A DNA stretch of 64,000 nt. Source: an uncultured Candidatus Saccharibacteria bacterium. GTDB lineage: Bacteria; Patescibacteriota; Minisyncoccia; SW-4-49-11. Shown here in pieces: positions 4,671 to 56,965 of this stretch (positions are counted from its first letter, which is position 1; every line of letters begins with the position of its first letter). The notes beneath the pieces were generated by a model. The model did not search any database and had not been told where the DNA came from. It saw only the letters and a program-made list of their open reading frames with translations. The position numbers and the translations under genes are program-made. The stretch is taken from contig CAZPCB010000001.1 of assembly GCA_964585065.1 (NCBI GenBank), positions 14,037-78,036 of the forward strand, written 5' to 3'.

Positions 4671-4729
4671 ATAATACTATAACAATTTGTTACTATATTA
4701 TAGCATAAATTAGTCAAAAAAGCAAGATA

Positions 4730-6685
4730 CTACACCAAATTCGGAGGATTGATTTCGATTTCCTGGCCATATTCCAATATAGGGACTAATTTGCGTTTGA
4801 TAGAGGTGGCTTGTTTGGGAGTGGTTTGTATGGTGAGGGTAAAGCGATACAGTCCTTTGCCTCGAGCAATATATTTTTCTAAAGGTCCAAGGGCTCGTAT
4901 ATGTATACTGGATAAAGCCTCTTTGATGCGGAGAGCCTGGGCTAGAGATTTGGATCTGATATGATGTTGTGAATGTATGGCGATAATCTCATATTGCGGG
5001 GGATAATGATACAGATTACGATTCTCATATTCTTGTTCCCATAGCTCGGCAATGGGGTGATTGAGTATGGTATGAATATGTGAGGGGCTTTCCTCATCAC
5101 GATTCCAAGCAGTGAATGTCTGTATTAGAGTTTTATCACTATGCATTATAAGTTCGGATAAAACCTGTATTGACTTTTCTCGAATAGTATAATCGGGGAA
5201 ATTGACCAGGGATTCAGCGGAGGGGATAATGGTGAGAGTTTTCGGAATTATATCCAGGAATTTGTGTATCATACGCGTGGTGAGGAGAATTGCAGGTTTA
5301 GTCTGATTAAAATTATCTATAATACTTTGTTGATGCTCAAGATTGCTGGCGGTATCACTAGAAAGTACAAAATGGGGGGTATTGGGGAATAAGGATTTAC
5401 TAAAATCTTCAATTTTCTCAATTCCAATTCCTCCTTGATGTAAATTGAGGGATTTGCATTGTGGGCAAATATGTATCATCTTGAACCATTTATGTGAGCT
5501 ATGGGATAATAATACTTGATTCTCGGTATAATTGGGTATGGCTTTTGGTAAAGTGTCTACACGATGCACTGTGAGCAAAGTTCCTGTTTTGGGGTCTCGG
5601 AGGTGATATCCACAATCGCGGCAAGATACATATAGGGATTCTCCTCGGCGATTGACATATATAATGGCGGATTGATTATTTTGTAGAGATTTCTGTATAG
5701 CTTTTTGGGCTGGTATTGATAATAAATCTCGGTTTCCCTTATAGAATTCTGTCTGCATTTCAATCAAATTGATTTTGGACTTAGGAATATGGGGATATAC
5801 CTCAGTGGGGAGACTGAGATTATGAGACTCTAATAGAGCAAGAGTACTAATGCTCGGAATAGTGGAGGCGAGGGTGATATGGGCTTGATGTAATTTGGCT
5901 ACCTCGACCGCAATACTGGTGGTATGATAATGAGGTTTGGTGTCAAAAGAATAATAGGATTCAGAAGATTCATCTTCTATAATAATATGAGTTAAATGCT
6001 GAAAGGGTAAGAATATATTGCTTCTCGTTCCAATAATAATCTTAGCCTCTCCTGATTTTACCTGAGACCAAGCGGCCCTCTGAGCGGTTATGCCAAGTTG
6101 TGAGCTGATAAGGAGGGGATTATAATCTACAAATTCACGGGAAAGTCTTTCGAGGCTAATAGTATCGGGTACTAATATCAGTATTTGGCCTATATTTGAT
6201 TTGAGAATGGTATGATAGTGTTTGATTCTTTTGGAGAGAGTCCCGAGGAATGCTTTAGGGATATAATCAGGGCCTAATTCTATTTCAGGAGAGGGGACAT
6301 TGAGTATATTCGGGTAGCGTTTTATTTTGTTCGATAATTTTGGCAGGAATAATTTGATAATATTGCCAAGAGCATGGGCATAATAATTACTCATCCATTG
6401 GGCTAAGTCCAATTGTTGGCTTGTTAATAAGCTATTATCAGAAAATCGCTTACGAATTGGCTTGGGGCTGAAGCTTGCAAATTTCTTTAAATCTTGTTTA
6501 GCATTTGTCAGCTCTTGACAAAAATAAACAATTGCTGTAATATCTGTGTTACGAACTTCCACTAATATAAGAGTTCCCGGGAGAATGCTCTCGGAAGCAT
6601 AATAGGTCAAAGTTTGACTTATTTGACCAGGGAGTTTGATAAGAGGGACAACTTGCAAAATATACATACATATAGTATACTCCAT
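4730..6685 (-). CDS. priA: primosomal protein N' (replication restart helicase PriA)
   Basis: Helicase core 'ILILVPDTISLERL' and DExH-like 'IIIEDESSESY'. Cys4 zinc-binding inserts 'CRDCGYHLRDPKTG...CPQCKS'. Conserved def-fmt-priA neighbourhood. Confidence 0.75.
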   Translation of the reverse strand: MEYTICMYILQVVPLIKLPGQISQTLTYYASESILPGTLILVEVRNTDITAIVYFCQELTNAKQDLKKFASFSPKPIRKRFSDNSLLTSQQLDLAQWMSNYYAHALGNIIKLFLPKLSNKIKRYPNILNVPSPEIELGPDYIPKAFLGTLSKRIKHYHTILKSNIGQILILVPDTISLERLSREFVDYNPLLISSQLGITAQRAAWSQVKSGEAKIIIGTRSNIFLPFQHLTHIIIEDESSESYYSFDTKPHYHTTSIAVEVAKLHQAHITLASTIPSISTLALLESHNLSLPTEVYPHIPKSKINLIEMQTEFYKGNRDLLSIPAQKAIQKSLQNNQSAIIYVNRRGESLYVSCRDCGYHLRDPKTGTLLTVHRVDTLPKAIPNYTENQVLLSHSSHKWFKMIHICPQCKSLNLHQGGIGIEKIEDFSKSLFPNTPHFVLSSDTASNLEHQQSIIDNFNQTKPAILLTTRMIHKFLDIIPKTLTIIPSAESLVNFPDYTIREKSIQVLSELIMHSDKTLIQTFTAWNRDEESPSHIHTILNHPIAELWEQEYENRNLYHYPPQYEIIAIHSQHHIRSKSLAQALRIKEALSSIHIRALGPLEKYIARGKGLYRFTLTIQTTPKQATSIKRKLVPILEYGQEIEINPPNLV

Positions 6686-7252: not shown

Positions 7253-7286
7253 TTTAGTCCTATCTACTGTATTTAGCTAGAGAATA

Positions 7287-7326
7287 TGTCCTCCCTTGGG
7301 GGAGGTGCCCGTAGGGTGGAGGAGGA
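7287..7326. repeat. GC-rich palindromic repeat, module 3 copy ('tgtcctcccttgggggaggtgcccgtagggtggaggagga')
   Basis: About 85% identical to 3028-3068 and to the reverse complement of 47745-47785. Lies just upstream of the metG start. Confidence 0.7.
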
Positions 7327-7397
7327 TACGGTTCGGGTTTATATTTTATCCTGATTCGTTTGCACAAATAGATAGTATTTGGTATTATAACAATAAT

Positions 7398-8879
7398 ATG
7401 AGTAAGTCATTTTTTGTTACCACACCAATTTATTATCTCAATGGAGAGCCTCATTTGGGGCATTATTATGCAACCACAATTGCTGATGTATTAGCACGCT
7501 ATAATCGCAAATTTGGAGAGGGGGCTTTCTTTTTGACAGGAACTGATGAGCATGGACAAAAAGTAGCTGAGGCTGCTAAAAAAGATAATATAACTCCCCA
7601 AGAATATACCGATAAATTATCTGCTATTTGGGAAGGAGTTTGGAAAGATTTGGATATTAGCTATGATTATTTTATTCGCACCACTAATCCTACTCATAAG
7701 GCTTTATGTCAATTTGTTATTCAAACATTATTAGACAGTGATGATATATACCCTCAAGAATATGAAGCCTTATATTGTGTAGGAGCTGAATCATTTGTAA
7801 CACAATCTGAATTGAGAGTAGGAGGATTATGCCCTGATCATGATGAAAAGCCTCAAATTGTATTAGAGAAGAATTATTTCTTTAGACTGAGTAAATATAA
7901 AGCGAAAGTTCTTGAGTTAATTGAGAATAATACTATTCATATCTCACCAGAATCTCGTCGTAATGAAGCAATTGAGCTACTCAAAAACCCCGAAGTGGGA
8001 GATTTCTCCGTGACACGAGAGAAAGTAAGCTGGGGGATATCTGTGCCATTTGACACCGAGCAGACTTTATATGTTTGGATAGATGCACTATTCAATTATA
8101 TGTCAGGAATATTAGCAAAGAAAGACATCGATATTAATTCTTTATCTCTGGATGAAATTCTTGATAATATTAAGGATATTTGGCCACCAGATTTACATAT
8201 TATTGGGAAGGATATACTCAAATTCCATGCAGTATATTGGCCAGCTTTTCTTTTGGCCCTCGGAGTGCCAGAAGAGAATTTACCTAAGACTATTCTCGTT
8301 ACAGGATTTTTCCTCTCTGATGGACGCAAAATGAGTAAAAGTATTGGGAATGTCATAGTGCCCCAAGATATTATTGCTTATTTTGATGAGATAACTGATG
8401 GTCTTGGTAATGATATACTTCGCTATGTGATCCTGAGAGAAATGCGAATTGGTAATGATGGAGATATTACTAAGGAGAAAATTATTGGAATTTATGAATC
8501 AGAACTTGTCAATAAATTTGGTAATACTTTTAGTCGTGTGATTGGAATGGCAAAGAAATACGATATAGAAATACCTCATGAATCAGGAGAATTGTCTCAA
8601 GATTATCATAATGCATTACAAAAATATGATATATATGAGGGAATACATACTATATTTGAACAAATAAATCTTATTGGACAAGAAATAGAGTTTCATAAAC
8701 CTTGGGAATTATATAAAGAGGGGAAAACTGAAGAATTAGAAGCTCTTATGAAAAATTGGCTTGAATCCCTACATCAAATTACTGATTTAATTGAGCCGAT
8801 AATGCCATCAACCGCAAAGTTAATGAAAAAACTTCTTGCAGGTGAGAATATTCATATATTTCCACGAATAGAAGAGTAG
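7398..8879 (+). CDS. metG: methionyl-tRNA synthetase (short form without C-terminal tRNA-binding appendix)
   Basis: 'PIYYLNGEPHLGHYYATTIADVLARY' (HIGH motif), 'KMSKSIGN' (KMSKS), zinc knuckle 'CVGAESF...CPDHD'. Real ATG at 7398 (MSKSFF); the track start at 7296 reads through the repeat. Confidence 0.9.
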   Translation: MSKSFFVTTPIYYLNGEPHLGHYYATTIADVLARYNRKFGEGAFFLTGTDEHGQKVAEAAKKDNITPQEYTDKLSAIWEGVWKDLDISYDYFIRTTNPTHKALCQFVIQTLLDSDDIYPQEYEALYCVGAESFVTQSELRVGGLCPDHDEKPQIVLEKNYFFRLSKYKAKVLELIENNTIHISPESRRNEAIELLKNPEVGDFSVTREKVSWGISVPFDTEQTLYVWIDALFNYMSGILAKKDIDINSLSLDEILDNIKDIWPPDLHIIGKDILKFHAVYWPAFLLALGVPEENLPKTILVTGFFLSDGRKMSKSIGNVIVPQDIIAYFDEITDGLGNDILRYVILREMRIGNDGDITKEKIIGIYESELVNKFGNTFSRVIGMAKKYDIEIPHESGELSQDYHNALQKYDIYEGIHTIFEQINLIGQEIEFHKPWELYKEGKTEELEALMKNWLESLHQITDLIEPIMPSTAKLMKKLLAGENIHIFPRIEE

Positions 8880-11035: not shown

Positions 11036-13537
11036 ATGGCAGACGATACCAAAATTTCAACAATTGAGAATATAGGAAATATTGAGCTTACAGATATTGT
11101 GGCTGAAATGGAGCGCGCCTATATTGATTATTCAATGAGCGTAATTGTAGATAGAGCCCTTCCTGATGTAAGAGATGGATTAAAACCAGTTCATAGAAGA
11201 ATTCTGTATGCTATGCATGAACTTGGTTTGAGGCCAGAAGCAAAATTCCGTAAATCTGCTACCATAGTCGGAGAAGTACTCGGAAAATACCATCCTCATG
11301 GAGATACTGCTGTATATGATTCTTTGGTTCGTATGGCACAAGATTTTTCTCTGAGATATACCTTGGTAAAAGGACAAGGAAACTTTGGATCTATGGATGG
11401 TGACTCAGCCGCAGCTATGCGATATACTGAGGCAAAAATGGACAAAATTGCTCGAGAAATGCTTGTCGATATTGATAAAAAAACCGTTAATTTTATCCCC
11501 AATTATGATGGGAGTATCGAAGAACCAACCGTATTACCAGCAAGAGTTCCTAATCTTCTTATTAATGGAGGAACAGGAATTGCTGTAGGTATGGCAACTA
11601 ATATTCCTCCCCATAATTTGAAGGAAATTGTAGGAGCAACTATTGCTTTGATTGAAAATCCAGAAATTACTATTGAAGAATTATTGCATTTTGTTAAGGG
11701 ACCAGATTTCCCTACTGGAGGAGAATTATATAATATTGAAAATATTCGGCAAGTATATGCTACTGGGCGAGGACCTCTTGTTACTCGAGCTAAAGCTGAA
11801 ATTGTAGAGAGAACCAAAAAAGGAAATGCTTTTGATATTATTGTCTCAGAAATGACATATCAGACCAATAAATCTACCCTTATTGAGAAAATGGCCAATA
11901 TGGTCAGGGATAAAAAACTTGATGGTATTAAGGATATTCGAGATGAATCTGATCGTGATGGAGTAAGAGTGGTGATTGAACTCAAATCTGATGCGTATCC
12001 ACAAAAGGTACTTAATAAATTATACAAATTAACTGATTTACAAAAAACCTATCATGTTAATATGTTGGCTCTTTGTGATGGTATTGAACCAAAGACATTG
12101 TCATTAAAACAAGCCCTACAATATTATATTATTCATCGTAAGGAAGTTGTAACACGAAAAACTGAATTCGAATTACAACAGGCGAAGGATCGAGCTCATA
12201 TTTTGGAAGGACTCAAAAAAGCACTTGACTTTATTGATGAAGTTATTAGTATTATTCGAGGATCTGAGAGTAAAGAAATTGCTAAAGTAAATTTGATTAA
12301 GCGTTTTGAATTCAGTACATTGCAAGTACAGGCTATTCTAGATATGAGATTACAAACTTTGGCTGGATTAGAGCGACAAAAAATTCTTGATGAATTAGCA
12401 GAATTATTAATTCTTATTAAAGAATTAGAGTCAATTCTTGGATCAGAAGAGAGAATTTTCCAAATTATCAAAGATGATTTGAAACAAGTGTCTGAACAAT
12501 ATGGCGATGAACGAAAAACTCGTGTATTCCAAGAAGAGTTGGGAGATTTTAAAGAGACAGATTTTATCCCGAATGAAGATACTATTATTATCTTGACTAA
12601 GGATGGGTATATTAAGCGAGTAGATCCGAAAGAATATCGTTCTCAAAGGCGAGGTGGAGTAGGAATTTCTGGAGTAAAAACGCGAGAAGATGACTCAGTA
12701 TCGATTTTCCTCCATACTATTACTCATGCGAAATTACTATTCTTTACTAATGATGGAAGAGTTTTGAAATTGAAAGCCTATGAAATTCCACAAGGATCTC
12801 GTATTGCCAAAGGTCAATCTATTGTTAATTTCCTGGAACTTACCAAAGATGAGCAAATTCAATCAATTCTACCAACTGAAGATGCATCAGATAGCTTTGT
12901 ATCTATTGTAACTAAATTTGGTATCATCAAGAAAAGTGCAATGTCGGTATATGCTAATGTAAGAAAGGGTGGAATTATTGCTATTAATCTTAAGGACAAA
13001 GATAGTCTTATACAGGCAACTATTACTCATCCTGATGATGATGTGATCTTATTCACAGCTCAAGGCAAAGCTATACGATTTTCTCAAGAAGAATTGAGAC
13101 CAATGGGAAGAACAGCATCTGGGGTTAAAGCAATTACATTAAAACCTGATGACTCAGTATTATCTATGCAAACAATTCGCTCTGGAGATGAGCAAGGATG
13201 GCTCGTGATTGCAACCGCACAAGGATATGGTAAAAAAAGTAAATTAAGTCATTATAAAGTACAGCGACGAGGTGGTGGAGGAGTAAAAGTATCCAAAATA
13301 ACCACTAAAACTGGTCTTGTTATGGGAGCTCAAGTAGTAACCCCAGATAGCAAGGAGTTAATAGCCATTTCTCTTGGGGGGAATATTATTAAGCTGAATA
13401 TACAAAAAGATATTCCAACATTATCCCGAGATACTCAAGGGGTAAAAATTATGAGACTTAATAAAGACGACACTATTGCTTCAATCGCCGTGACCACTGA
13501 AGATGAAAAAGAAGAAGAGATAGAGTCATCAGAATAG
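11036..13537 (+). CDS. gyrA: DNA gyrase subunit A
   Basis: '[24 protein letters not shown]', '[10 protein letters not shown]' (active-site Tyr region) and repeated '[16 protein letters not shown]' beta-pinwheel blades. 833 aa. Confidence 0.95.
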
Positions 13538-14139: not shown

Positions 14140-15486
14140 ATGGCAGGGAATAATTCTCTAGATTCATTTACCAAAAATCGCAAAGTGATTATTATTGCGG
14201 GAGTAGCTATATTAGCTATTGTTATATTGATGCTTGGTAATGCACTTGGATTTAAAATTGGAGGTGAGAAAAAAGTACAAAAAGCAAATTTGGTAGTATG
14301 GGGAGTCTGGGATGAAAGCGAGACAATGACGAAATTGGGAAGTGATTTTCGTAAAACATATCCTAATGTAAGTATAGAATATCGTAAATTCAAGCCACAA
14401 GATTATGAAACAGAATTAGTGAATGCTTTAGCTGAGGGAAGAGGACCAGATATATTTGCAATAGAACATACTTGGCTCGGAAAGCATAAGAATAAATTAG
14501 CTTCAATGCCAGAAGAAATTATGACGCTTAAAGATTATCAAGATCGTTTTGTAGATGTGGTCAATCAAGACTTTATTGACGAGGGTAAAATATATGGATT
14601 TCCCCTATATACCGATACCTTAGCATTATTATATAATAAAGATGCTTTCAATGATGCAGGAATTGCAAATCCACCAGCAACTTGGGAAGAATTACAAAAA
14701 ATTGTCCCGGAATTAACTAAAATTGATCAATTTGGTAATATTAAACAGGCAGGGGTTGCACTTGGTACTGGGGATAATATAAATCGCTCACCAGATATAT
14801 TGATGGCATTAATGCTACAATCGGGAGCTCAATTTACAGACCCTAAGGATACAAGTCAAATTATATTCTCACAAAGTAAGAATGTCAATGGACAAAATAT
14901 AAATCCTGCTCAATTATCCCTGGCCTATTATACTGACTTTGCTAATCCACGAAAGGGAGTATATACCTGGAATTCAACCTTAAATAATTCAATAGATGCT
15001 TTTTATGAAAGAGAAGTAGCTATGATATTTGGATATTCATATCAGGTAGAAGCAATTAAAGTGAAAGCCCCAAGACTTAATTTTGCAGTAGCACCTCTTC
15101 CTCAAGTATCATTAGATTCTGGACTTGCTAACTTTGCAAATTATTGGGGATATGGAGTCAGCGGTCAATCCAAATACCCAAAAGAATCTTTTGCATTTCT
15201 CAAATCAGCCACCGAAAAAGAAAATGCCCAAGATTATTTCTTGAAAACTAAGCGTCCAACAGCCAGAAGAGATTTAGTAGATACTCAATCTCAAGATATA
15301 GATTATGGGGTATTTGTAAAACAAATTTTACAAGCAAAAACTTGGAGACAACCAGATAATAATTCAGTAGATAAAATATTTATTGAGGCTATTAATTCAG
15401 TAAATTCAGGATTGCTTGATTACTCAAAAGCTATTAGTCAAGCTGAATCAGAAATACAAACATTAGCTGATAATGTGAAAAAATGA
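14140..15486 (+). CDS. extracellular solute-binding protein (ABC-type, family 1, sugar-binding-like), N-terminal TM anchor
   Basis: N-terminal TM anchor, then 'LVVWGVWDE...YRKFKPQDYETELVNALAEGRGPDIFAIEHTWLGKH...YGFPLYTDTLALLYNKDAF' typical of SBP_bac_1. Its stop overlaps the next gene's ATG (ATGA). Confidence 0.7.
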   Translation: MAGNNSLDSFTKNRKVIIIAGVAILAIVILMLGNALGFKIGGEKKVQKANLVVWGVWDESETMTKLGSDFRKTYPNVSIEYRKFKPQDYETELVNALAEGRGPDIFAIEHTWLGKHKNKLASMPEEIMTLKDYQDRFVDVVNQDFIDEGKIYGFPLYTDTLALLYNKDAFNDAGIANPPATWEELQKIVPELTKIDQFGNIKQAGVALGTGDNINRSPDILMALMLQSGAQFTDPKDTSQIIFSQSKNVNGQNINPAQLSLAYYTDFANPRKGVYTWNSTLNNSIDAFYEREVAMIFGYSYQVEAIKVKAPRLNFAVAPLPQVSLDSGLANFANYWGYGVSGQSKYPKESFAFLKSATEKENAQDYFLKTKRPTARRDLVDTQSQDIDYGVFVKQILQAKTWRQPDNNSVDKIFIEAINSVNSGLLDYSKAISQAESEIQTLADNVKK

Positions 15487-16820
15487 AATATATAAAGTTC
15501 AGTATAGTTTTTGGTATAATATTCTTAGTAGTTTCATTTTTTAGTATTAACTATACTAATGCACAGAGTGCAGATGCAGCTTGTAGTGCAGGGGCAACAT
15601 CATTAGAGCAAAACTGTACTTTTCAAAATGGAAGCTCTCGTTTAAATGGAAAATGCCAGGTTAAAGATAAAAATAATCCAGGTTTAGGATTAACTTGTCG
15701 TACTAGCTTAGGATCATCCTGCTCAGGTGATACTTGTCAAAATGGATTAGCCTGTATTAATCAGGTTTGTTCCAGTCCAAGAGGGGCTAAAACTCAAGGT
15801 CAATCTTGTTCAGGGAATGGAAATGAATGTATTGCAGGTCTTGAATGTAGAAATTTTATATGTACAAAAGAAGCTGCCATTACTGGTGGAGGGTCTGGGC
15901 AAACTGGAGGTGGTCAAGTCGGTACCCCTGGAGGTGGTCAAGTCGGTACCCCTGGAGGCTCAACAGGGGCAGAAACAGGGCTAGTAAAATGTGGAGTGAG
16001 TAGAGATTGTACCATTTGTGATATATTTATTTTAATTCGAGATGTCTTTAATTTTGCTCTAGGACTACTGGCTTCACTCGCGGTATTAAGCGTTGTGATT
16101 GGGGGAGTATATATACTCACCTCAGCGGGTAATCCAGGAGCAGTAAGTACAGGATATGGCATTATTACCAATGCAGTGATTGGACTATTATTAGTCATGG
16201 CGAGTTTCCTTCTATTCAGCTTTTTATTAGTAGGACTTGGATTCCAAGAACAAAATTTCTCAGCCGTACTTACTTTTCAACCAGGAAAAATATTCGAGGT
16301 AAAATGTGATACTGCTAGTACTTTTAATGATAATGGAGGTAATGGAGGAGGAGCAGCTACAACAAATAGGGGGCCTGTCACATGTAAAAATAGTCAATGT
16401 TTAGCAAAAAACCCTCAGTTAAAAGATCAAATAGAAAAAAGTGCTGCAAAATATGGAATAGAATCAAATCTACTATTAGCTATAATTGATGAAGGTGAGG
16501 GGTGTAATCCTTCTACTACGGCTGCATGTAGTAGATCCTATAGTGATAGTGATTGTTCAGCTGGTTTTACACAATGTACTCCATTAATACGAGCTAAATT
16601 TACCGGAATAAGCGACCCAAAAGCTAGCTTAGATAAGATTAAATCTGATTTATCTACTGATATTGATTGTGGAGCTTGGCTTATTAAACAAAATGCAGGA
16701 GTTTGTCCTCTTTCAGATGTCCGAAAGGTAGCAAGCTGTTATAATGCTGGCTTATCTGGGGCATGTGGTACTCGTAATTATTGTCAGAGAGTTTCAAGTT
16801 ATTATAATGGTTGTAAATAA
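15483..16820 (+). CDS. secreted Cys-rich protein with internal TrbC/VirB2-like pilin hydrophobic hairpin and C-terminal lytic-transglycosylase-like (SLT) domain
   Basis: Signal peptide; CxxGxxC repeats ('CSGDTCQNGLACINQVCS', 'CIAGLECRNFIC'); Gly-rich tandem 'GGGQVGTP' x2. Two-helix hydrophobic segment '...LASLAVLSVVIGGVYILTSAGNPGAVSTGYGIITNAVIGLLLVMASFLL' matches the downstream small pilin-like proteins. C-terminal 'IESNLLLAIIDEGEGCNP...SAGFTQ...CYNAG' resembles SLT motifs (ES, GLMQ-like, AYNAG). Confidence 0.55.
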   Translation: MKYIKFSIVFGIIFLVVSFFSINYTNAQSADAACSAGATSLEQNCTFQNGSSRLNGKCQVKDKNNPGLGLTCRTSLGSSCSGDTCQNGLACINQVCSSPRGAKTQGQSCSGNGNECIAGLECRNFICTKEAAITGGGSGQTGGGQVGTPGGGQVGTPGGSTGAETGLVKCGVSRDCTICDIFILIRDVFNFALGLLASLAVLSVVIGGVYILTSAGNPGAVSTGYGIITNAVIGLLLVMASFLLFSFLLVGLGFQEQNFSAVLTFQPGKIFEVKCDTASTFNDNGGNGGGAATTNRGPVTCKNSQCLAKNPQLKDQIEKSAAKYGIESNLLLAIIDEGEGCNPSTTAACSRSYSDSDCSAGFTQCTPLIRAKFTGISDPKASLDKIKSDLSTDIDCGAWLIKQNAGVCPLSDVRKVASCYNAGLSGACGTRNYCQRVSSYYNGCK

Positions 16821-16833
16821 TTATAGAAATAAT

Positions 16834-17517
16834 ATGAGTTTTAAAAGTTACTTAATATCAATAATAGTATTTTGTATAGCATTGTATCCATTCAAATTTG
16901 TTAGTGCTGATAGTTTAAATATTGATTTATATTTTGATGGTAATAATATAAGATTAGATAATAAAGTAGATAATCCAATTAATTATATTAAGACTGAGGG
17001 TATTGATAAATATCAATCTGGAGGTGTAGATGATAGATATAAGTTAGAAATTGTATCTGATGGTACTGTTACATATTCACAAATTATAACACCTCCACAG
17101 ACTCCATCCCCATTTCAAGTGTTGCTTCCTAATATTAATATCGCAGACAAGGTGAAAGTTATATCTAATAATTCGATTACTTCTGAATTTGATATATCAC
17201 AATATAAGACATGTTTTAGTAATTTGATATGTGAATATGAAAAAGGAGAAAATATTAATTCCTGTCCCTCTGATTGTAATAATGATAATACTAAATTCTC
17301 AGAGGAAACTCAGAAAACTCTTCAAAAAGAAAATGGAATAATTCGGGATGAAGCGGGAACTGTATTATTGTCAACCAATACTCCTACTCCTAATACTGAC
17401 ACAAATTCAGAGACAGAACAATCCAACACATTAGGGAATATTGCTATTTTAATAGGAGGAATAGTATTCCTTGCTGGGGGACTGGGGCTATTTATTTGGA
17501 AATTAAGAAAAAGATGA
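16834..17517 (+). CDS. secreted protein with C-terminal membrane anchor (hypothetical)
   Basis: Signal peptide 'MSFKSYLISIIVFCIALYPFKFVSA', Asn/Thr-rich body, C-terminal TM plus basic tail 'IAILIGGIVFLAGGLGLFIWKLRKR'. Real ATG at 16834. Confidence 0.45.
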   Translation: MSFKSYLISIIVFCIALYPFKFVSADSLNIDLYFDGNNIRLDNKVDNPINYIKTEGIDKYQSGGVDDRYKLEIVSDGTVTYSQIITPPQTPSPFQVLLPNINIADKVKVISNNSITSEFDISQYKTCFSNLICEYEKGENINSCPSDCNNDNTKFSEETQKTLQKENGIIRDEAGTVLLSTNTPTPNTDTNSETEQSNTLGNIAILIGGIVFLAGGLGLFIWKLRKR

Positions 17518-17547
17518 TATAATTAAAAGTAATTAAATACAGATATT

Positions 17548-18195
17548 ATGAAATTTATTTTATCGACAAGTTTAGCAATTTTATTTGTAATAGGATTTAT
17601 GGGGAATACCTATAATGTCTTTGCTGCTTGTGGGACTGGTCCAGATTGTGCCTCAGGACAGGTATGTGTAACAGTAGATGGTGCTACAAAATGTTTAAAA
17701 AATGAGGCGAATAGTAGTGGTGTTTGTGCGGGGGACTCTTCTATTAAATGTGGATCTGGACAGGCATGTATTCAAAATAAAGCAAAGGAGATTGTATGTG
17801 CTCCTGTACCTAAAGCTAATACATTACAGCCAGCAGCAGATAATACAAAAAATCCAGATAGTGCAGCTAATGGAGGAGGTAACACTTCTGGGGGAGGGGG
17901 ATTATTAGAGGGACTCAATGCTTTTGGTAGTGCAGATTCTGGACTTAATACAGAGGGAACTCTCATTGGGTTTATTGCTAATATTATTCGCTGGATATTA
18001 GGATTACTTGGAACAGTATTCTTTGTAATCATAGTTTTACAAGGGTATCTTTATATGACATCTTCAGGAGATGCGAGTAAAACAGCAGCAGCTACGGGGG
18101 CTATTACTAATGCAGTAATAGGACTACTGATTATTATGGGAGCTTTCCTCATTACTAATTTTGTAACAAGTGCTTTGATTGCCGCGGGCCCTTAA
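17548..18195 (+). CDS. TrbC/VirB2-like pilin-family protein with N-terminal Cys-rich module
   Basis: Signal peptide; 'CGTGPDCASGQVCV...CGSGQACIQ' module; Gly-rich linker. Hydrophobic hairpin 'IIRWILGLLGTVFFVIIVLQGYLYMTSSGDASK...AITNAVIGLLIIMGAFLITNFV'. Confidence 0.55.
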   Translation: MKFILSTSLAILFVIGFMGNTYNVFAACGTGPDCASGQVCVTVDGATKCLKNEANSSGVCAGDSSIKCGSGQACIQNKAKEIVCAPVPKANTLQPAADNTKNPDSAANGGGNTSGGGGLLEGLNAFGSADSGLNTEGTLIGFIANIIRWILGLLGTVFFVIIVLQGYLYMTSSGDASKTAAATGAITNAVIGLLIIMGAFLITNFVTSALIAAGP

Positions 18196-18205
18196 TATCT
18201 CATAT

Positions 18206-18553
18206 ATGATAGAAAAATTTATATCTTATTTCATAATAGCAACAGCGAAAGCCCAGGAGACATCGCCTCCTCCTATATTAGCTATACCTACAGGAACAGG
18301 AGTGGGGGAGCAAGGAGATCTGTTTACTTTTGTGTCAGCTATTGTGCAATGGGGATTGGGATTAATAGGGATAGTATTATTTGTACTTATACTCTTTTCT
18401 GGATTCCAATATGCAACAGCAGGGGGCGACTCTAAAAAAACTGAAGAAGCTATTAGTAGAATTACTTCTGCAGTAATCGGAGTATTCATTGTAGGGGTGG
18501 CTTTTATACTATCCAATGCAGTATTAGGATTTGTTTTTAGTCTAGGATCTTAA
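18206..18553 (+). CDS. TrbC/VirB2-like pilin-family protein (small)
   Basis: 'IVQWGLGLIGIVLFVLILFSGFQYATAGGDSKKTEEAISRITSAVIGVFIVGVAFILSNAV' is the two-helix hairpin with a charged loop. ATG at 18206. Confidence 0.5.
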   Translation: MIEKFISYFIIATAKAQETSPPPILAIPTGTGVGEQGDLFTFVSAIVQWGLGLIGIVLFVLILFSGFQYATAGGDSKKTEEAISRITSAVIGVFIVGVAFILSNAVLGFVFSLGS

Positions 18554-18653
18554 TATACTGACTTATCCACAATAGTATCACTTGCATAGTAATATAAGAT
18601 ATGATAGTATAAAAACATAGAACATATTATTCAATAATTATTAAGATATTCTT

Positions 18654-19037
18654 ATGAATACTTCCCAGATAAAATCAATAGCAACAAGAGCATTATTACC
18701 TGTATTAGTATTAGCTCCTACTTTAGCTGGAGCTGCAACTCCCGTAAAAGATACTAGAGTCATAGGTGAAATACCTCAAGTAGCTGGTACTAATCAATCT
18801 ACTGACCTTGTGGCTACAGTACAAGTGGTTATTCAATGGGCATTAGGATTTATCGGAATTGTAATATTCATTATTTTCTTATTTGCAGGATTTGAATATG
18901 CAACAGCAGGAGGAGATGAAGGAAAAGCAAAAACTGCACAATCTCGAATGATTAACGCGGTAATTGGATTAATTATTATATTCTTTGCCTTTGTAGCTTC
19001 AAATGCAATATTGTCATTCGTATTCCCAGGAAATTAA
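18654..19037 (+). CDS. TrbC/VirB2-like pilin-family protein (small)
   Basis: Signal peptide, then 'VIQWALGFIGIVIFIIFLFAGFEYATAGGDEGKAKTAQSRMINAVIGLIIIFFAFVASNAIL'. Confidence 0.55.
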   Translation: MNTSQIKSIATRALLPVLVLAPTLAGAATPVKDTRVIGEIPQVAGTNQSTDLVATVQVVIQWALGFIGIVIFIIFLFAGFEYATAGGDEGKAKTAQSRMINAVIGLIIIFFAFVASNAILSFVFPGN

Positions 19038-19060
19038 TCAAATTGATAGATACTATGAAA

Positions 19061-19091
19061 CAATAAAAAGGGATATAATCCCTTTTTATTG
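19061..19091 (+). terminator. rho-independent terminator-like hairpin ('caataaaaagggatataatccctttttattg')
   Basis: Perfect 8-bp GC-containing stem with flanking A/T runs, directly after the 18654 gene. Confidence 0.55.
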
Positions 19092-19181
19092 TTTAGAGAA
19101 TACATATTCAAATAATATAGTATTCTTGTCAGATAATAGAATACTTGATATACTTGTAATATATAGAATAGTAAAATAGAT

Positions 19182-19595
19182 ATGAGAGTCTTATTGATTA
19201 TAATAGCTTTATTAATAGGGGGATTTGTATTAAGTTCAAGTATTTCCTTGGCTCAAAGAGCCCCTGATGCTACTCTCCCTGATCCAGGAACAATCCCTAT
19301 TAATACAGGTATATCTGAGGGACCGACCCTCATAGAGACAGTATCTCTTATTATAAGATGGATATTAGGATTTATTGGTATTATAGTATTTGTGATTTTC
19401 TTATTTGCAGGATTTGAATATGCAACAGCAGGAGGAGATCAGAGTAAAGCAGAAAATGCTAGTAAAAGAATGGTAAATGCAATTATAGGACTTATTATTA
19501 TATTCTTTGCCTTTGTAGCATCCAATGCTGTATTGGAATTTGTATTCCCTCCAGATACTACTGCCAATATTAATACCTTATTTAATAGCAATTAA
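19182..19595 (+). CDS. TrbC/VirB2-like pilin-family protein (small)
   Basis: 'IIRWILGFIGIIVFVIFLFAGFEYATAGGDQSKAENASKRMVNAIIGLIIIFFAFVASNAVL'. About 80% identical in the hairpin region to the 18654 product. Confidence 0.55.
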   Translation: MRVLLIIIALLIGGFVLSSSISLAQRAPDATLPDPGTIPINTGISEGPTLIETVSLIIRWILGFIGIIVFVIFLFAGFEYATAGGDQSKAENASKRMVNAIIGLIIIFFAFVASNAVLEFVFPPDTTANINTLFNSN

Positions 19596-19596
19596 T

Positions 19597-20487
19597 ATGA
19601 AATATATTATCTTTTCACTTTTATTAGGTATAGGATTAATAATCCCTCAGAATAGCTTTGCTCAGACAGCTGCTCAAAATACAGCTTGCTCAGGTAAAAA
19701 AAATGGAGATGCATGTACCTATCAAAGAACAGTAACTACTGGAGGAAAAAATACTCCCAGAGGAACTGCAACGCAGACTGAAAGTGGTTTTTGTGATAGG
19801 ACCAATGCAGATAGTATAGCAAAAAATAATCCATTGACTTGTAAAACACTTGATTCTGAGAAGAATGGATGGGAAGATTGTGTTATCATTGGAGATGCTT
19901 GTAAATCTGGTAGCGAATTAGGTGTATGTAGAGCTCCAGGGCCTAAAACAGGACCATGTGACATTAGTAAAAAACCACCAGGTAGTCCGGGGGGAATATC
20001 TCCAGCAAAATGTGGCACATCAACATGTACAGGTGGACAAGTATGTGTGCAGCAAGGTGGAAGCCCAGTTTGTACTAATGATTTAACAAAAAATGGAAAA
20101 TGTGGCACATCAACATGTACAGGTGGGCAAGTATGTGTACAGCAAGGAGGAAGTCCAGTTTGTACTAATGATGCTGCTACACCAAGTACATCAACTAATA
20201 ATGGAACTACTACAGATGCATCATCCCCCCAAAGTGTAGGATTTGTGAACCCTATAAGGTTTAACTCTATTCCTGAGCTTATCGCAGGTATTATTAATGC
20301 CTTATTAGGTATATTAGGAGCGATTACTGTGGCTATTCTAGTTATGTCAGGATTTAAATATATGACAAGTTCTAATCCAGGAGAAGTAGGGCAGGCTTTG
20401 GATGGAATTAGGAATGCAGTTGTGGGACTTATGATAATTATGGGGGCTTTCCTCATAACACAATATATTATCTCGGCTTTGGTTTAA
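19597..20487 (+). CDS. TrbC/VirB2-like pilin-family protein with Cys-rich tandem-repeat N-domain
   Basis: Signal peptide 'MKYIIFSLLLGIGLIIPQNSFA'. 30-aa tandem repeat 'KCGTSTCTGGQVCVQQGGSPVCTND' x2. C-terminal hairpin 'LIAGIINALLGILGAITVAILVMSGFKYMTSSNPGEVGQALDGIRNAVVGLMIIMGAFLITQYII'. ATG at 19597, not the track's 19525. Confidence 0.55.
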   Translation: MKYIIFSLLLGIGLIIPQNSFAQTAAQNTACSGKKNGDACTYQRTVTTGGKNTPRGTATQTESGFCDRTNADSIAKNNPLTCKTLDSEKNGWEDCVIIGDACKSGSELGVCRAPGPKTGPCDISKKPPGSPGGISPAKCGTSTCTGGQVCVQQGGSPVCTNDLTKNGKCGTSTCTGGQVCVQQGGSPVCTNDAATPSTSTNNGTTTDASSPQSVGFVNPIRFNSIPELIAGIINALLGILGAITVAILVMSGFKYMTSSNPGEVGQALDGIRNAVVGLMIIMGAFLITQYIISALV

Positions 20488-20513
20488 ATGTATAAATATT
20501 AATAAAAAGAAAA

Positions 20514-20535
20514 AACCTACCATAGTGGGTAGGTT
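20514..20535. terminator. bidirectional terminator hairpin ('aacctaccatagtgggtaggtt') between convergent genes
   Basis: Perfect 8-bp stem with a 6-nt loop, flanked by A-run and T-run. Lies between the 20487 (+) and 20562 (-) gene ends. Confidence 0.6.
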
Positions 20536-20561
20536 TAGTATTTACTTACTGAGAGCAAATG

Positions 20562-21329
20562 TTACTCTCCCAGTCGGATGACAGGCCATTCAGACTGTCC
20601 TCCTGGTTGGGTGTTCCAGTAAGCATATATTCCTTTAACTTTTTCGGGTGCACCGTAGTCTTGTTCAGAGAAAAAATCGACTTGTAGATTTCCCTCCAAC
20701 TCTTCTTTTAAGGGGAAACATTTGGTTCCAAGTGTTGAGAAGGACTCTCCATTTAGGGTTAATTCCTGAGGGACTCGTGTGGAGCCATCAACTAGTCCTA
20801 GATGGGTGAAGCAAAGAGATTTCCGCCCTTTAGGTACTGAGTAATTTCCATCACCAGTGAGGGTGATTTTCTTACCAGATACCACAACTCTTTCAGTGGA
20901 AGGAGGAGGCTCCTCAACTGGTGGAGCTACCTGCTCGATTGGAGCAGGAGGGTTCAGCTGTGCTTCCCGAATTTGCTTCACTCCGGGGTTGAGTCCGGGG
21001 ATAAAGAAATTCAAGAGAGCGACACCCATCACCAACTTCGATAGGGGTTTGTTACCCCCAGTAAAATGCGATACTCCAGCTCCAATCAAGATTGCGATGA
21101 TCTCGAGAGGGAGTAGAGCTCCTCCAAAGAGAAGCATCCGAGCGAGAAGCCATCCCCCACTTACTCCGAGGAGTAAGTGGGGAAAGGTCCCAGAAGGGAG
21201 GCTCACTCCTTTCCCTTTCCCTGCCGGAGCAGGGGAGGAGGGTGAAGATGTTTTTGAAGAATTACTACTTGAGGTAGTGCTGGATGATGGGTTGGATTGA
21301 TTGTTAAGGCTATAGCGACGATTTGCCAT
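20562..21329 (-). CDS. membrane protein with Ser-rich N-terminus, 2 TM helices and a C-terminal soluble domain (possibly NfeD-like partner of the adjacent SPFH gene); lies in a high-GC island
   Basis: N-terminus 'SNPSSSTTSSSNSSKTSSPSSPAPAGKG', TM segments 'LLLGVSGGWLLARMLLFGGALLPLEIIAILIGAGV', and about 150 aa of soluble C-terminus. Local GC is about 50% against about 33% for the flanking DNA. Start chosen at MANRRY. Confidence 0.45.
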   Translation of the reverse strand: MANRRYSLNNQSNPSSSTTSSSNSSKTSSPSSPAPAGKGKGVSLPSGTFPHLLLGVSGGWLLARMLLFGGALLPLEIIAILIGAGVSHFTGGNKPLSKLVMGVALLNFFIPGLNPGVKQIREAQLNPPAPIEQVAPPVEEPPPSTERVVVSGKKITLTGDGNYSVPKGRKSLCFTHLGLVDGSTRVPQELTLNGESFSTLGTKCFPLKEELEGNLQVDFFSEQDYGAPEKVKGIYAYWNTQPGGQSEWPVIRLGE

Positions 21330-21414
21330 AGTGCCTCGATGAAAAGAACATAATATATATAGCATATTTTAGGTAAAATGTCAATATTTATAGACATAAA
21401 CAATAAAGAAAAAA

Positions 21415-21453: not shown

Positions 21454-22449
21454 CTACTTTGATTGTAGCATGGCAAGGAGGCCACTAAGCCCACCTTCTG
21501 TGATGAACTTATCTTTATCTCCGACAATTTCCTTCAGAGCAGGTATCTCTACCAATGCTCTGTAGGCTTGTTCATCGGAGATACCGGGATCATTGCTCAA
21601 TGCTTTCACAGCACTGAGCAATCCCTCTGCCTCTGTAACTCGGTTTTTGACCTGCTGCTCAATTACTCGAGCTCGGGCTACCTCGCGATCGAGTGCAGCT
21701 TGTTGCTCCGCTTTCTCTACGGCAGATCTATTCCTAGCTTCATTGACCGTATCGGGAAGAGACAAATCATCGATGTTAATCGACATTAAGTCAACTCCAA
21801 TATTGTCAAGTTTGTCTAGGATTGAGTCACGGATCTTTCTTATATCTTCTGTGGGGTTTTCATCCTTATCAATTCTAGCTCCAACTTGCTTCAGTCCAAG
21901 AGCTTGTAGTAATTGATCAGGAGTAATTTTGGAGACTTGAATCTCATCTAGGGTTTTCCCATCTGCACGCTGAGTGGTATATTCTGCATAAGAATGTTTC
22001 TGCAGAACTAGACGTATGTAAGGGTTCAAAATGCGTTCAGTTGCCTGTAATACATCTTGATCCTCAGCATTATAATGCGCATTGTACACATTATATGCTT
22101 TTTCAGATAGATTCTTTCCCTTGATTTGAGCAATCACACTAACTTTTGCAGTTAATGTGATATCTGGTAGCTCAAGTTCAGCATAATCTCCAGGTGTTGG
22201 AGTGTCATGCCTAAATAGATATACGGGGAATTGATTGGTGCTATATGCTCCTACCAATTTTGCCCCTGGGACAATTATGTGTGGTCCCGGAGTGGCAATT
22301 CTAGAAAGAACTCCAGTTCCTGTATGATTTGGGCGACTGCCCAACCATGAGATTACATGAATCTCATCATCCGGTACAATCCAAATAGGTGGAAGATAAA
22401 AGGGCTCGAATTTAGCCATGAGTTTGTGAATGAGCATGGAACTCCTCAT
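21454..22449 (-). CDS. SPFH/band-7 (stomatin/prohibitin/HflC-like) domain protein
   Basis: N-terminal SPFH-like core ('IWIVPDDEIHVISWLG...PGPHIIVPGAKLV') and a C-terminal 'AEQQAALDREVARARVIEQQ' coiled coil typical of the band-7 family. GC about 50%. Confidence 0.65.
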   Translation of the reverse strand: MRSSMLIHKLMAKFEPFYLPPIWIVPDDEIHVISWLGSRPNHTGTGVLSRIATPGPHIIVPGAKLVGAYSTNQFPVYLFRHDTPTPGDYAELELPDITLTAKVSVIAQIKGKNLSEKAYNVYNAHYNAEDQDVLQATERILNPYIRLVLQKHSYAEYTTQRADGKTLDEIQVSKITPDQLLQALGLKQVGARIDKDENPTEDIRKIRDSILDKLDNIGVDLMSINIDDLSLPDTVNEARNRSAVEKAEQQAALDREVARARVIEQQVKNRVTEAEGLLSAVKALSNDPGISDEQAYRALVEIPALKEIVGDKDKFITEGGLSGLLAMLQSK

Positions 22450-43415: not shown

Positions 43416-44024
43416 ATGAAAACAAAACGAGATATATTACTTCGCAAATCTCTCCATCTAGGACTTATACTTCCTTTTGCTGTGTATTGGTATATATCTG
43501 CTCAGATTTTTATCGATGCAGAGTTATATGCTAAGAGCTTTTTAGCTGTCTTTGTAATAGGATTCTTGATATATGAATATTTGCGACTAGATACTCGATT
43601 TTGGGTTCCATTTGCGAGTTTAGTAAAACCCAAGGAGCAAAATACCAATGTAGATGGGTTGAATTTGGTTTTAGCTGCTATTGTGGCGACAGCTCTTTTT
43701 GATCCGAGAGTTTCTCTCACCGCAATATTAATTGCCATTATTGGGGATACATTTTCTACAATTGGAGGAATTTATGGTACAATGAGAGTATTCCCAAATA
43801 CAGAAAATAAAACTACTTGGGAAGGTATATTATTAGCTTTAATTGCAAATTTTGCAATAGCAAGTAGCATATGGGGATTTGGTATTATTCCACTTATATT
43901 AGCTCTAGTGGGAGTTATTATTGAAACCTTTGCCTCTAAGCTCGATGATAATTTGGCAATTCCCTTGGGAGTGGGATTCGTAGGACAAGTGATTTGGCTT
44001 ATAGTACAATATTATCCAAAATAA
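43416..44024 (+). CDS. polytopic membrane protein, CTP-transferase-1 / dolichol-phytol kinase-like (tentative)
   Basis: 6-7 TM helices. 'KSLHLGL', 'IGDTFSTIGGIYG' and 'KTTWEGIL' resemble the CDS/DGK1/SEC59 family motifs. Confidence 0.35.
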   Translation: MKTKRDILLRKSLHLGLILPFAVYWYISAQIFIDAELYAKSFLAVFVIGFLIYEYLRLDTRFWVPFASLVKPKEQNTNVDGLNLVLAAIVATALFDPRVSLTAILIAIIGDTFSTIGGIYGTMRVFPNTENKTTWEGILLALIANFAIASSIWGFGIIPLILALVGVIIETFASKLDDNLAIPLGVGFVGQVIWLIVQYYPK

Positions 44025-44035
44025 ATAATAATACC

Positions 44036-45238: not shown

Positions 45239-45244
45239 ATCACT

Positions 45245-46798: not shown

Positions 46799-46800
46799 AT

Positions 46801-47253
46801 ATGCTGTACTTTTGGCTTATCCCTATTATTCCTCTGACCGCAGGTCTTATATATGCTGGGTTTGTAAAAGATATTCTAGAGGAAAAAGGATTATTAAAGT
46901 TAGGACTTCAAAGAAGTGAACTTGCTAAAGTCAATATTGTAAGAGGATTTTTATTATTAGGTATTGTAATATTCCTTATATTTGCAACAGGTAAAAGTCA
47001 GCTTATTATAGGACTTATTGGTATAGTTTTGGGATTTTTGATTATGTTTTTCTCAGAACCCATACATAGAATTTTAGCAACTGGTGGAGGGAGTAATTCA
47101 TCCTTTAGGGGAGATGATAAAATTAAATTGGTTGGTATAGTGATTTGTATTTTGTCAGCTGGTTGGATGTCAGGTATTACACAGGGATTATTGTATGGAT
47201 TTTTAAAAACGGCCAATCTTATTCCATCAAGTGATGTAATAGATTATTATTAG
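46801..47253 (+). CDS. small polytopic membrane protein (hypothetical)
   Basis: 150 aa with 4 TM helices. Start is 3 nt after the upstream stop. Confidence 0.35.
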   Translation: MLYFWLIPIIPLTAGLIYAGFVKDILEEKGLLKLGLQRSELAKVNIVRGFLLLGIVIFLIFATGKSQLIIGLIGIVLGFLIMFFSEPIHRILATGGGSNSSFRGDDKIKLVGIVICILSAGWMSGITQGLLYGFLKTANLIPSSDVIDYY

Positions 47254-56867: not shown

Positions 56868-56940
56868 GCGGGTATCGTATAAAGGCTAATTATCTCTGCC
56901 TTCCAAGCAGATGATGAGGGTTCGAATCCCTCTACCCGCT
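56868..56940 (+). tRNA. tRNA-Gly (anticodon TCC)
   Basis: Manual fold. Acceptor GCGGGTA/TACCCGC. Anticodon stem TCTGC/GCAGA with loop CTTCCAA. T-arm GAGGG-TTCGAAT-CCCTC. Discriminator T. The D-stem is imperfect. Confidence 0.7.
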
Positions 56941-56965
56941 CATTCATAAATAGTAAAAAATTAAA

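Follow-up and report, generated by a model that had tools for sequence, protein, structure and literature searches.

Patescibacteria, the bacteria of the candidate phyla radiation (CPR), account for much of the diversity among uncultured bacteria and are found attached to other microbes. Quinonero-Coronel et al. (2025) searched 3,035 of their genomes with PF18895 (T4SS_pilin) and VirB2 profiles and found 441 VirB2-like arrays, of 2–11 genes each, in 383 Patescibacteria assemblies, with within-array identities that average 25% and reach 54% at most; pilins occurred in 1,948 VirB4-containing assemblies, near virB4 in 1,135 of them and not near it in 813, and the versatility of the arrays was proposed to help adaptation to different host strains (PMC12102498). 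The same survey of type IV secretion systems (T4SSs) counted 2,474 virB4 genes in the 3,035 genomes, and few VirB1 homologues (PMC12102498). Epibiotic growth of Southlakia epibionticum ML1 requires a predicted pilin series in the T4SS cluster (Wang et al. 2023; PMC10633639); a 2025 review counts six structurally conserved, sequence-divergent VirB2-like pilins in this species and calls a pilus an 'intriguing possibility' (PMC12857230), and a preprint finds that PF18895 dominates freshwater-specific structure clusters (10.1101/2025.04.23.650224). Here we analyse a 64-kb stretch of DNA (the window, meaning the whole of that stretch) that carries such an array: six same-strand hairpin genes (g1 and g3–g7), with one non-pilin gene (g2) among them, at 15483–20487, and a further hairpin gene (g8) far downstream, beginning at 56966.

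With six hairpin genes, a single intervening non-pilin gene and a Patescibacteria genome, the locus falls within the published definition of an array (PMC12102498) and is a further case of a patescibacterial pilin array. A sequence-only reading of this DNA had implied novelty, but arrays of this sort, stand-alone ones included, are already published (PMC12102498, PMC10633639, PMC12857230), NCBI labels close homologues as secretion-system pilins, and both the family assignment and the host-range idea match published statements. Modestly new are the fusions of the hairpin to hydrolase domains, the orthology of the paralogs slot by slot and the swapping of cassettes between relatives; the kind of system is not. 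On balance we favour the view that the locus holds the VirB2-like T4SS_pilin (PF18895) subunit set of an ultrasmall freshwater Candidatus Paceibacteria bacterium, a set that a T4SS encoded elsewhere would assemble, and we infer that its products may form a pilus.

The hairpin and its family

All eight open reading frames (ORFs; g1–g8) are present on the + strand where the sequence-only reading had placed them, and seven of them, all but g2, encode an ~80-residue helix-loop-helix that aligns along the pattern '..W.LG..G...F.I....GF.Y.TAGGD..K......I.NAVIGL.II..AF'. A profile built from the seven hairpins and run on all six-frame ORFs of at least 50 aa in the window retrieves exactly those seven and no others. 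Against PF18895 (gathering cut-off 26.6 bits), g3 (38.5 bits), g4 (41.9), g5 (35.9), g6 (39.8) and g7 (41.8) pass, and g1 (26.1) and g8 (22.0) lie just below; orthologues of the latter two pass (P0010, 27.2 bits; P0017, 27.4; P0046, 27.3; P0064, 27.3), those of g1 at 27.2–27.4 bits. Since the PF18895 matches cluster at the array, they are not due to chance. The family is very large: of 1.84 billion cluster representatives, 77,309 match the seven-hairpin profile at E ≤ 1e-3, and 13,686 still do so at E ≤ 1e-10. Nearly all of 135 homologues of g5 match PF18895, and the close ones are named 'Type secretion system pilin' by NCBI.

A second family points to conjugative elements. The whole hairpin of g3–g7 aligns with NCBIfam NF045849, the Mbov_0395 family pilin-like conjugal transfer protein of a mycoplasma integrative and conjugative element (ICE), at 28.1–38.1 bits (E 1.2e-6 to 8.7e-10), g5 scoring highest (38.1 bits, E 8.7e-10) and g1 reaching 9.4 bits. 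None attains the equivalog cut-off of 40 bits; on these scores g3–g7 are relatives of the NF045849 proteins, not members. A literature search with the names of the mycoplasma pilin-like family gave no useful result.

Signal peptide features (N-terminal Lys/Arg, a hydrophobic run and an AxA-like site) are predicted in all seven hairpin proteins. AlphaFold2 (AF2) gives paired helices in both proteins modelled, as had been anticipated: residues 177–213 and 218–251 in g1 (predicted local distance difference test, pLDDT, 79–87) and 45–77 and 82–112 in g8, with pLDDT 79–93 across both. The best hairpin-type PDB match of the g1 model in a Foldseek search is the Aeropyrum conjugative pilus (8dfu; probability 0.99, E 0.86, TM-score 0.68 on the target).

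Hairpin identity among the paralogs ranges from 15 to 69%. The closest pair, g5 and g6, had been described as near-identical; the two share 69% of their hairpin residues and 51% over their full length. Both are minimal pilins, as is g4 (18206–18553; 115 aa), which consists of a signal peptide, a short Pro-rich segment and the hairpin; g5 (18654–19037) has 127 aa, and g6 (19182–19595; 137 aa) adds a short C-terminal tail. The other three members of the array carry ectodomains. In g3 (17548–18195; 215 aa), a signal peptide, two four-Cys modules (for example CASGQVCV...C) and a Gly-rich linker lead to a C-terminal hairpin, and all eight Cys precede it. In g7 (19597–20487; 296 aa), the signal peptide is followed by a Cys-rich region of ~200 aa, a Thr/Ser/Asn-rich linker and, again, a C-terminal hairpin; a 90-bp tandem duplication at 20007–20172 (TRF period 90 × 1.8, 94% matches) encodes the CGTSTCTGGQVCVQQGGSPVC module twice. 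The longest protein, g1 (15483–16820; 445 aa), has a signal peptide, Cys-rich beta modules (~28–130), a Gly-rich linker with a 24-bp × 2.3 repeat (15904–15958) encoding GGGQVGTP, the hairpin (177–251), a second linker and a lytic-transglycosylase-like domain (~300–445).

Parts of the first description of the locus therefore need adjusting. Six same-strand pilin-like genes at 15483–20487 and a copy at 56966 are there, with a shared hairpin, but in g1 this hairpin is central, with 188 residues after it, rather than C-terminal. The Cys-rich modules, thought to be shared, are confined as four-Cys modules to g1, g3 and g7 (15, 8 and 16 Cys ahead of the hairpin); the three minimal pilins, g4–g6, are free of Cys.

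Hydrolase-like domains on g1 and g8

Peptidoglycan-hydrolase domains on g1 and g8 went without mention in the sequence-only reading. An AF2 model of g1 from a 57-sequence alignment (mean pLDDT 66) comprises beta-rich Cys modules (pLDDT 73–90) and an all-alpha C-terminal domain of moderate quality (pLDDT ~70–86). The top 31 PDB matches of this domain in Foldseek are MltC, MltE, Slt, MltF, phiKZ gp144 and g-type lysozymes, 26 of them at a probability of at least 0.96 and up to 1.0 (best E 4e-3). By sequence, the SLT profile (PF01464) stays below threshold on g1 (13.7 bits against 21.3, E 0.048) and scores in 9 of the 57 homologues; P0012 and P0046, which have the same architecture as g1, pass both SLT_3 (PF18896; 63.8–65.6 bits) and SLT. 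The E, GxxQ and YNxG motifs of g1 ('IIDE', 'GFTQ' and 'CYNAG') align with 'MAES', 'GLWQ' and 'VYRSG' of the SLT_3-positive homologues. We predict for this domain a lysozyme-like all-alpha fold of the lytic-transglycosylase kind.

The unlinked g8 (56966–57850; 294 aa), which lies between tRNA-Gly and secA, has a signal peptide, the hairpin (45–112), a Gly/Ser linker and a domain (~146–294) that we assign to a Tae3-like amidase of NlpC/P60-CHAP type. Its AF2 model has a pLDDT of 84 overall and of 95–98 in the C-terminal domain, where the modelled fold is papain-like, with a putative catalytic Cys at the N-terminus of a helix. Cys168 is invariant in 65 homologues, H171 and D256 are near-invariant, and H251, the candidate core-sheet His, is conserved in 38 of the 65 and replaced by Asn in 23. 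The domain has neither a Pfam match nor a PDB sequence match, and homologues at 55–60% identity in non-CPR bacteria are fused to PAAR, PG_binding_1/3 or ricin lectins. With its CYxH motif and a canonical His that is not clearly conserved, it has the look of a cell-wall toxin domain that spreads horizontally and has yet to be named. Kin of the domain (57400–57850; P0118–P0178) turn up in Deltaproteobacteria, Chloroflexi, Polyangium and even eukaryote transcriptome entries.

Other enzymes take the place of this domain elsewhere: homologues of the g8 hairpin (n = 120) bear Peptidase_M23 (30), M15_3 (8) or VanY (6) in its stead. Within this clade, the pilin-type hairpin is repeatedly combined with enzymes that degrade the wall, and a literature search found no description of hairpin-hydrolase fusions. 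As to the surroundings of g8, the tRNA-Gly gene lies at 56868–56941, and g8 begins 25 nt downstream of it. In the relative L084, the tRNA-Gly sequence is present twice (4705–4783 and 7271–7355), and a hairpin-hydrolase gene lies downstream of either copy, which gives the impression that the unit of the two was duplicated.

Conservation, exchange and transcription of the array

The GyrA of the window (11036–13537) has 99% identity to its counterpart in a 'Candidatus Paceibacteria' metagenome-assembled genome (MAG; L001) from Lake Mendota, 90–91% to those of several Parcubacteria/Paceibacteria MAGs and 78% to another, which marks the organism, by this gene, as a Candidatus Paceibacteria relative within the CPR/Patescibacteria and upholds its earlier assignment to the CPR. 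Six hairpin genes stand in the same order downstream of gyrA, the methyltransferase gene and the solute-binding protein (SBP) gene in L001, L003 and L005, and a more distant relative (L081, a 1.17-Mb contig) has the same layout by Pfam annotation; the L002, L006 and L007 contigs end inside the array. Every related genome whose contig spans a slot has the orthologue of that paralog. In a neighbour-joining tree of five genomes the hairpins group by slot, not by genome, so that the six paralogs predate these species; on this clustering we rejected recent tandem duplication or concerted evolution, and where recent diversification of the paralogs had been supposed there is instead an old, orthologous set.

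The paralogs differ in what varies. Among six relatives g4 is 111–115 aa long; g5 has 127–131 aa and g6 137–162 aa. The parts of g1, g3 and g7 ahead of the hairpin range among relatives from 57 to 225 aa and from 0 to 16 Cys. Between the window and L001, the hairpins of g1 and g7 differ by 38:4 and 27:3 synonymous:nonsynonymous codon changes, and the hairpins are under purifying selection.

Divergence from L001 is strongly uneven along the array. Given as nucleotide divergence with synonymous:nonsynonymous codons in brackets, it is 6.7% (156:5) in gyrA and 9.9% (87:25) in the SBP gene, 0.2% (0:1) in g1 codons 1–140, 13.1% in the g1 hairpin region, 2.0% (3:3) in g4, 1.0% (2:1) in g5, 15.2% (27:17) in the first 125 codons of g6 and 13.3% in the g7 hairpin region. 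Several segments of the window are unalignable with L001: 16351–17366 (the g1 C-terminal domain and the g2 ectodomain), 17805–17893 (part of the g3 Cys-module region) and 19555–20230 (the g7 Cys-rich region); unalignable segments adjoin segments that are 0.2–2% diverged. The g1 C-terminal domain is 39% identical to that of L001 and the remainder of g1 97–99%; the L001 orthologue of g3 (279 aa) has extra Cys modules, with 16 Cys before the hairpin against 8; and in L001 g7 (146 aa) a short Gly/Thr/Pro repeat replaces the Cys-rich region. At the g8 slot (rpoC, L33, FUR, g8, secA), the relatives L082 and L083 keep the first ~127 residues (92% nucleotide identity) and continue with Peptidase_M23, homology stopping at the Gly/Ser linker (57346) and returning at 57844. 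Breakpoints lie at low-complexity linkers, for example at a 9-bp repeat (16331–16348).

Read from the alignments, this pattern is the signature of recombination that exchanges exposed modules on a conserved core, and ectodomain swapping fits selection for changing host or partner specificity. The sequence-only reading had proposed diversification of the paralogs, perhaps antigenic or for host range; what varies between strains is the ectodomains, by recombination of alleles, and not the pilin core. The stretch of g4 and g5 (18206–19037, against 17765–18596 in L001) and g1 codons 1–140 are 0.2–2% diverged, and the flanking core genes 7–10%; this suggests that g4, g5 and the start of g1 were recently exchanged between the lineages of the window and L001.

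Into the same array falls g2 (16834–17517; 227 aa from the chosen ATG), a gene whose relation to its neighbours had been left unclear and can now be settled: it encodes a secreted non-pilin protein with a Thr/Pro/Asn stalk, one C-terminal transmembrane (TM) segment and a basic WKLRKR tail. We considered it as a diverged pilin and rejected this, since it has a single TM segment, no hairpin in the alignment and no PF18895 match, and resembles only, and weakly, an LPXTG anchor (TIGR01167, E 0.38). The g2 slot holds two unrelated ectodomain forms, one of ~225 aa and one of ~370 aa, that share a C-terminal tail; stalk, TM segment and WKLR(K/R)R tail are identical between the window and L001 (~15778–16884), conserved in L002 (8747–9871), L003 (15556–16662) and L005 (15863–16549) and diverged in L007 (6598–7272). 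Which form a genome carries runs counter to its kinship, and this points to either an ancient dimorphism or recurrent exchange.

The array is not a single tight operon: its intergenic gaps, from g1 to g7, measure 13, 30, 10, 100, 144 and 1 nt, and a strong stem-loop follows g5. At the upstream end, the stop codon of the SBP gene (14140–15486) overlaps the start codon of g1 at 15483–15486 (ATGA), so that a transporter component and the first pilin gene may be translationally coupled; the arrangement is not conserved, two extra genes lying between them in L081. The stem-loop after g5 (19058–19094) has a perfect 17-bp stem, a 3-nt loop and A and T tracts on its flanks, and folds with a dG of −20.7 kcal/mol (z −5.4; none of 200 shuffled sequences folds as stably). 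In L001 (18617–18653) it is nearly identical, with the same stem and a different loop, and L003 (~18038–18067) and L007 (~8601–8638) have a stem-loop of different sequence at the same position. It may act as an intrinsic terminator or attenuator and, with the 100-nt spacer upstream of g5, set this gene apart as its own transcription unit. A spacer and a terminator of its own around a pilin gene are the usual arrangement of a major subunit, and because g5 is bracketed by both it is our candidate for that role. A second, GC-rich stem-loop (20513–20536), between the convergent genes g7 and 20562–21365 on the minus strand, is terminator-like on both strands (fold z −2.9) and is the probable end of the array's transcription. 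A scan for sigma-70-type promoters returned 58 sites against 38 expected, which is uninformative in AT-rich DNA; sites lie upstream of g5 and g6.

Two minus-strand genes stand directly after the array, 20562–21365 (an unknown Ser/Pro-rich membrane protein) and 21454–22449 (SPFH/Band_7). The pair has a GC content of 0.43 against ~0.35 and is syntenic in L001 and L081; at the nucleotide level 20562–21365 has no homology to its L001 counterpart and is therefore another swapped surface gene. The GC content of the array itself (0.34–0.35) equals the window average. Horizontal acquisition of the array, considered on composition, was rejected, as only the minus-strand pair is higher and that pair is syntenic in relatives. 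The window as a whole is core genome: PriA, MetRS, GatB, GyrA, the methyltransferase, the solute-binding protein, the array and the two minus-strand genes are followed, in order, by rpsL, rpsG, EF-G, an AcrB-like protein, AlaRS, a photolyase, a PilM-like protein, RpoB/RpoC, FUR, g8, SecA and an M16 peptidase. The PilM_2/FtsA-like gene (43994–45238) lies among the unannotated 43416–44024, 45245–46798 (a weak Baseplate_J match) and 46801–47253; the region 43416–47253 may be part of a type IV pilus assembly cluster, a separate pilus system.

Proposed pilus subunits and other readings

If the locus is indeed a VirB2-like subunit set, each product would be exported by Sec and its signal peptide cleaved, and the hydrophobic helices would insert as a hairpin that faces the cytoplasm with its short charged loop and the exterior with its two ends, because the disulfide-type Cys modules on the N-terminal side and the peptidoglycan hydrolase domains on the C-terminal side each require that topology. 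A VirB4-driven T4SS of MPF-FATA type, encoded elsewhere, would then extract g4, g5 and g6 from the membrane, and these would be polymerised into a surface filament or stalk; g1, g3, g7 and the unlinked g8 would be built into it in small numbers or else remain at its base. The decorated pilins would display Cys-rich binding modules and wall-cutting enzymes (lytic-transglycosylase-like in g1, Tae3-like amidase in g8), enzymes that could open the wall in place of a VirB1-type protein, a function otherwise missing, or else attack the wall of the host. Judging from the genomes surveyed in the phylum, the prior for a VirB4-type T4SS in the same genome should be high. Other CPR bacteria have single polypeptides with 2–17 concatenated T4SS_pilin hairpins on short linkers (P0299, P0303, P0315, P0302, P0347); P0299, of 501 aa, has six, and its cluster includes a Ca. 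Andersenbacteria protein, and another polyprotein has 17 in 1775 aa. By analogy, such polyproteins suggest that different hairpins may co-assemble side by side.

Several observations weigh against a polymerising pilin set. No ORF of the window has a Pfam match to VirB4, VirD4 or VirB6, and all those of at least 495 aa are assigned to other functions; within these 64 kb, the earlier description of a stand-alone cassette holds. PF04956 (TrbC/VirB2, cut-off 27.9 bits) is unmatched, with g6 at 12.9 bits (E 0.13), g4 at 11.0 bits (E 0.52) and nothing for the others, so that of the original assignment to T4SS pilins of TrbC/VirB2 type the PF18895 part stands for g3–g7 and the PF04956 part does not. 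When profiles of the g8 family (E ≤ 1) and the minimal-pilin family (E ≤ 10) were run against the PDB sequences, nothing matched; at the level of sequence, these profiles do not connect the proteins to a pilin of known structure. As a fold, two-helix hairpins carry little information, and the match to 8dfu has an E-value of only 0.86. Ectodomains of 100–220 aa on every subunit would not fit a dense VirB2-type filament; g1, g3, g7 and g8 cannot be major subunits, and for g5 the evidence of such a role consists of its flanking signals. In the literature covered, we found no report of a T4SS pilus observed in any CPR bacterium.

The main rival takes the hairpin for a mere membrane anchor, N-out/C-out, of adhesin-like modules and wall hydrolases, with the minimal forms as small membrane proteins and no polymerisation by a T4SS. 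We regard it as possible, though we lean away from it. That peptidoglycan hydrolases of at least five unrelated families (SLT, Tae3/NlpC-P60-like, M23, M15_3 and VanY) are fused to the hairpin, on either side, is what one would expect of an anchor, the window has no T4SS genes nearby, and the poly-hairpin polyproteins resemble polytopic membrane proteins more than filament subunits; the Gram-positive VirB1-type hydrolases PrgK and TraG, too, are TM-anchored. But an anchor leaves the minimal g4–g6, conserved, constant in length and without an ectodomain, roleless, such strong conservation of the hairpin sequence would be needless for it, and the hidden Markov model links to a conjugative-element pilin-like protein (NF045849) would go unexplained. 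It also sits poorly with the pilin series of S. epibionticum, which lies inside the T4SS cluster and is essential (PMC10633639), and with the pilins that adjoin virB4 in 1,135 assemblies (PMC12102498).

A system of antigenic or host-range variation, in which the paralogs would be interchangeable alternatives of one pilin, arisen by duplication and diversification, strikes us as improbable. Such use has been proposed for the virB2 genes of Bartonella and Anaplasma, and here too the hairpins are strongly diverged (15–69% identity) and the ectodomains differ between strains. The same idea has been raised for Patescibacteria (PMC12102498). Yet an orthologue occupies every covered slot and the hairpins cluster by slot, as in an old set that is stably maintained; three constant minimal slots beside three ectodomain slots speak for differentiated roles; the covalently fused multi-hairpin proteins argue for co-assembly; and the locus has no promoterless silent copies or inversion sites, all genes being complete with signal peptides. 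Least credible, to the point of being nearly discounted, is a holin-endolysin-like or bacteriocin-like lysis or toxin cassette, for example of a degraded prophage, with the two-TM proteins as holins and g1 and g8 as lysins: small two-TM proteins do stand beside muralytic domains, and homologues of the g8 C-terminal domain are fused to PAAR as in type VI secretion system toxins, but all products have predicted cleavable Sec signal peptides, the core position between gyrA and rpsL is conserved across a family-level clade with no phage genes, composition is not skewed over the array and the hairpins are held by purifying selection.

The reading of the locus as a pilin subunit set can be taken further, to a version we consider doubtful: the PF18895 hairpin would be the constant display or trafficking module of a polymorphic, T4SS-linked wall-attack system, in which interchangeable hydrolases (SLT-like, Tae3-like, M23, M15 and VanY) and Cys modules, on or through a filament, would breach or remodel the host wall, with recombination at the linkers tracking host wall chemistry. 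If this is true, hairpin-hydrolase fusions would explain the apparent lack of recognisable VirB1 genes in most Patescibacteria. More generally, fusions of hairpin and wall enzyme may stand in for the 'missing' VirB1 or have the host as their target. A T4SS with its pilin series is essential for the attached lifestyle in the one species tested; the present locus offers a fixed set of six differentiated subunits across a freshwater Paceibacteria clade, with g5 as candidate major subunit, and clear evidence that exchange among close relatives affects the exposed parts rather than the core.

Of the described systems, the patescibacterial arrays are the nearest: they share PF18895 and the phylum, consist of 2–11 tandem genes, sometimes interrupted by one non-pilin, have low paralog identity and number six genes in ML1, as here. 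They are reported to be most abundant in Microgenomatia and Saccharimonadia, whereas this one belongs to the class Paceibacteria, lies between gyrA and rpsL, unlinked to virB4 within the window, and has three members with large Cys-rich ectodomains, one of them with a lytic-transglycosylase-like domain. The array literature cited mentions neither the slot-wise orthology, nor the exchange of cassettes, nor a terminator following g5. The 'Sec secreted array' of TM7x (McLean et al. 2020) belongs with these arrays.

The pilins of conjugation systems share the build but not the family profile. VirB2, TrbC and TraA pilins and the archaeal CedA1 pilus (8dfu) likewise have a signal peptide, two hydrophobic helices, a short polar loop and N-out/C-out topology; here PF04956 is unmatched, the host is monoderm, and some members have ectodomains of 100–220 aa that classical pilins lack. 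To the mycoplasma ICE protein of NF045849, whose host is monoderm with a T4SS of MPF-FATA type, the ~80-residue hairpin aligns over its full length, but the taxon differs and the present locus is not on an ICE.

Two further comparisons concern the wall enzymes. Gram-positive VirB1-type hydrolases (PrgK, TraG of pIP501, TcpG, CD419/Orf14) combine a TM anchor with SLT and/or CHAP/NlpC-P60 domains; in our locus the anchor is a VirB2-type hairpin after a signal peptide, and the two activities are on separate proteins. Tae3 and the polymorphic toxins (PAAR/Rhs/CDI) join a constant N-terminal trafficking part to a swappable C-terminal toxin, whereas the N-terminal part of g8 is a pilin-type hairpin and not a known toxin-trafficking domain, and no adjacent immunity gene is recognised for it, secA being directly next. 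The virB2 arrays of Bartonella and Anaplasma, finally, are likewise tandem, diverged virB2-like genes of a host-dependent bacterium, but they encode classical PF04956 pilins in diderm virB operons and are thought to be alternatives to one another, whereas the genes described here are stably orthologous and architecturally differentiated.

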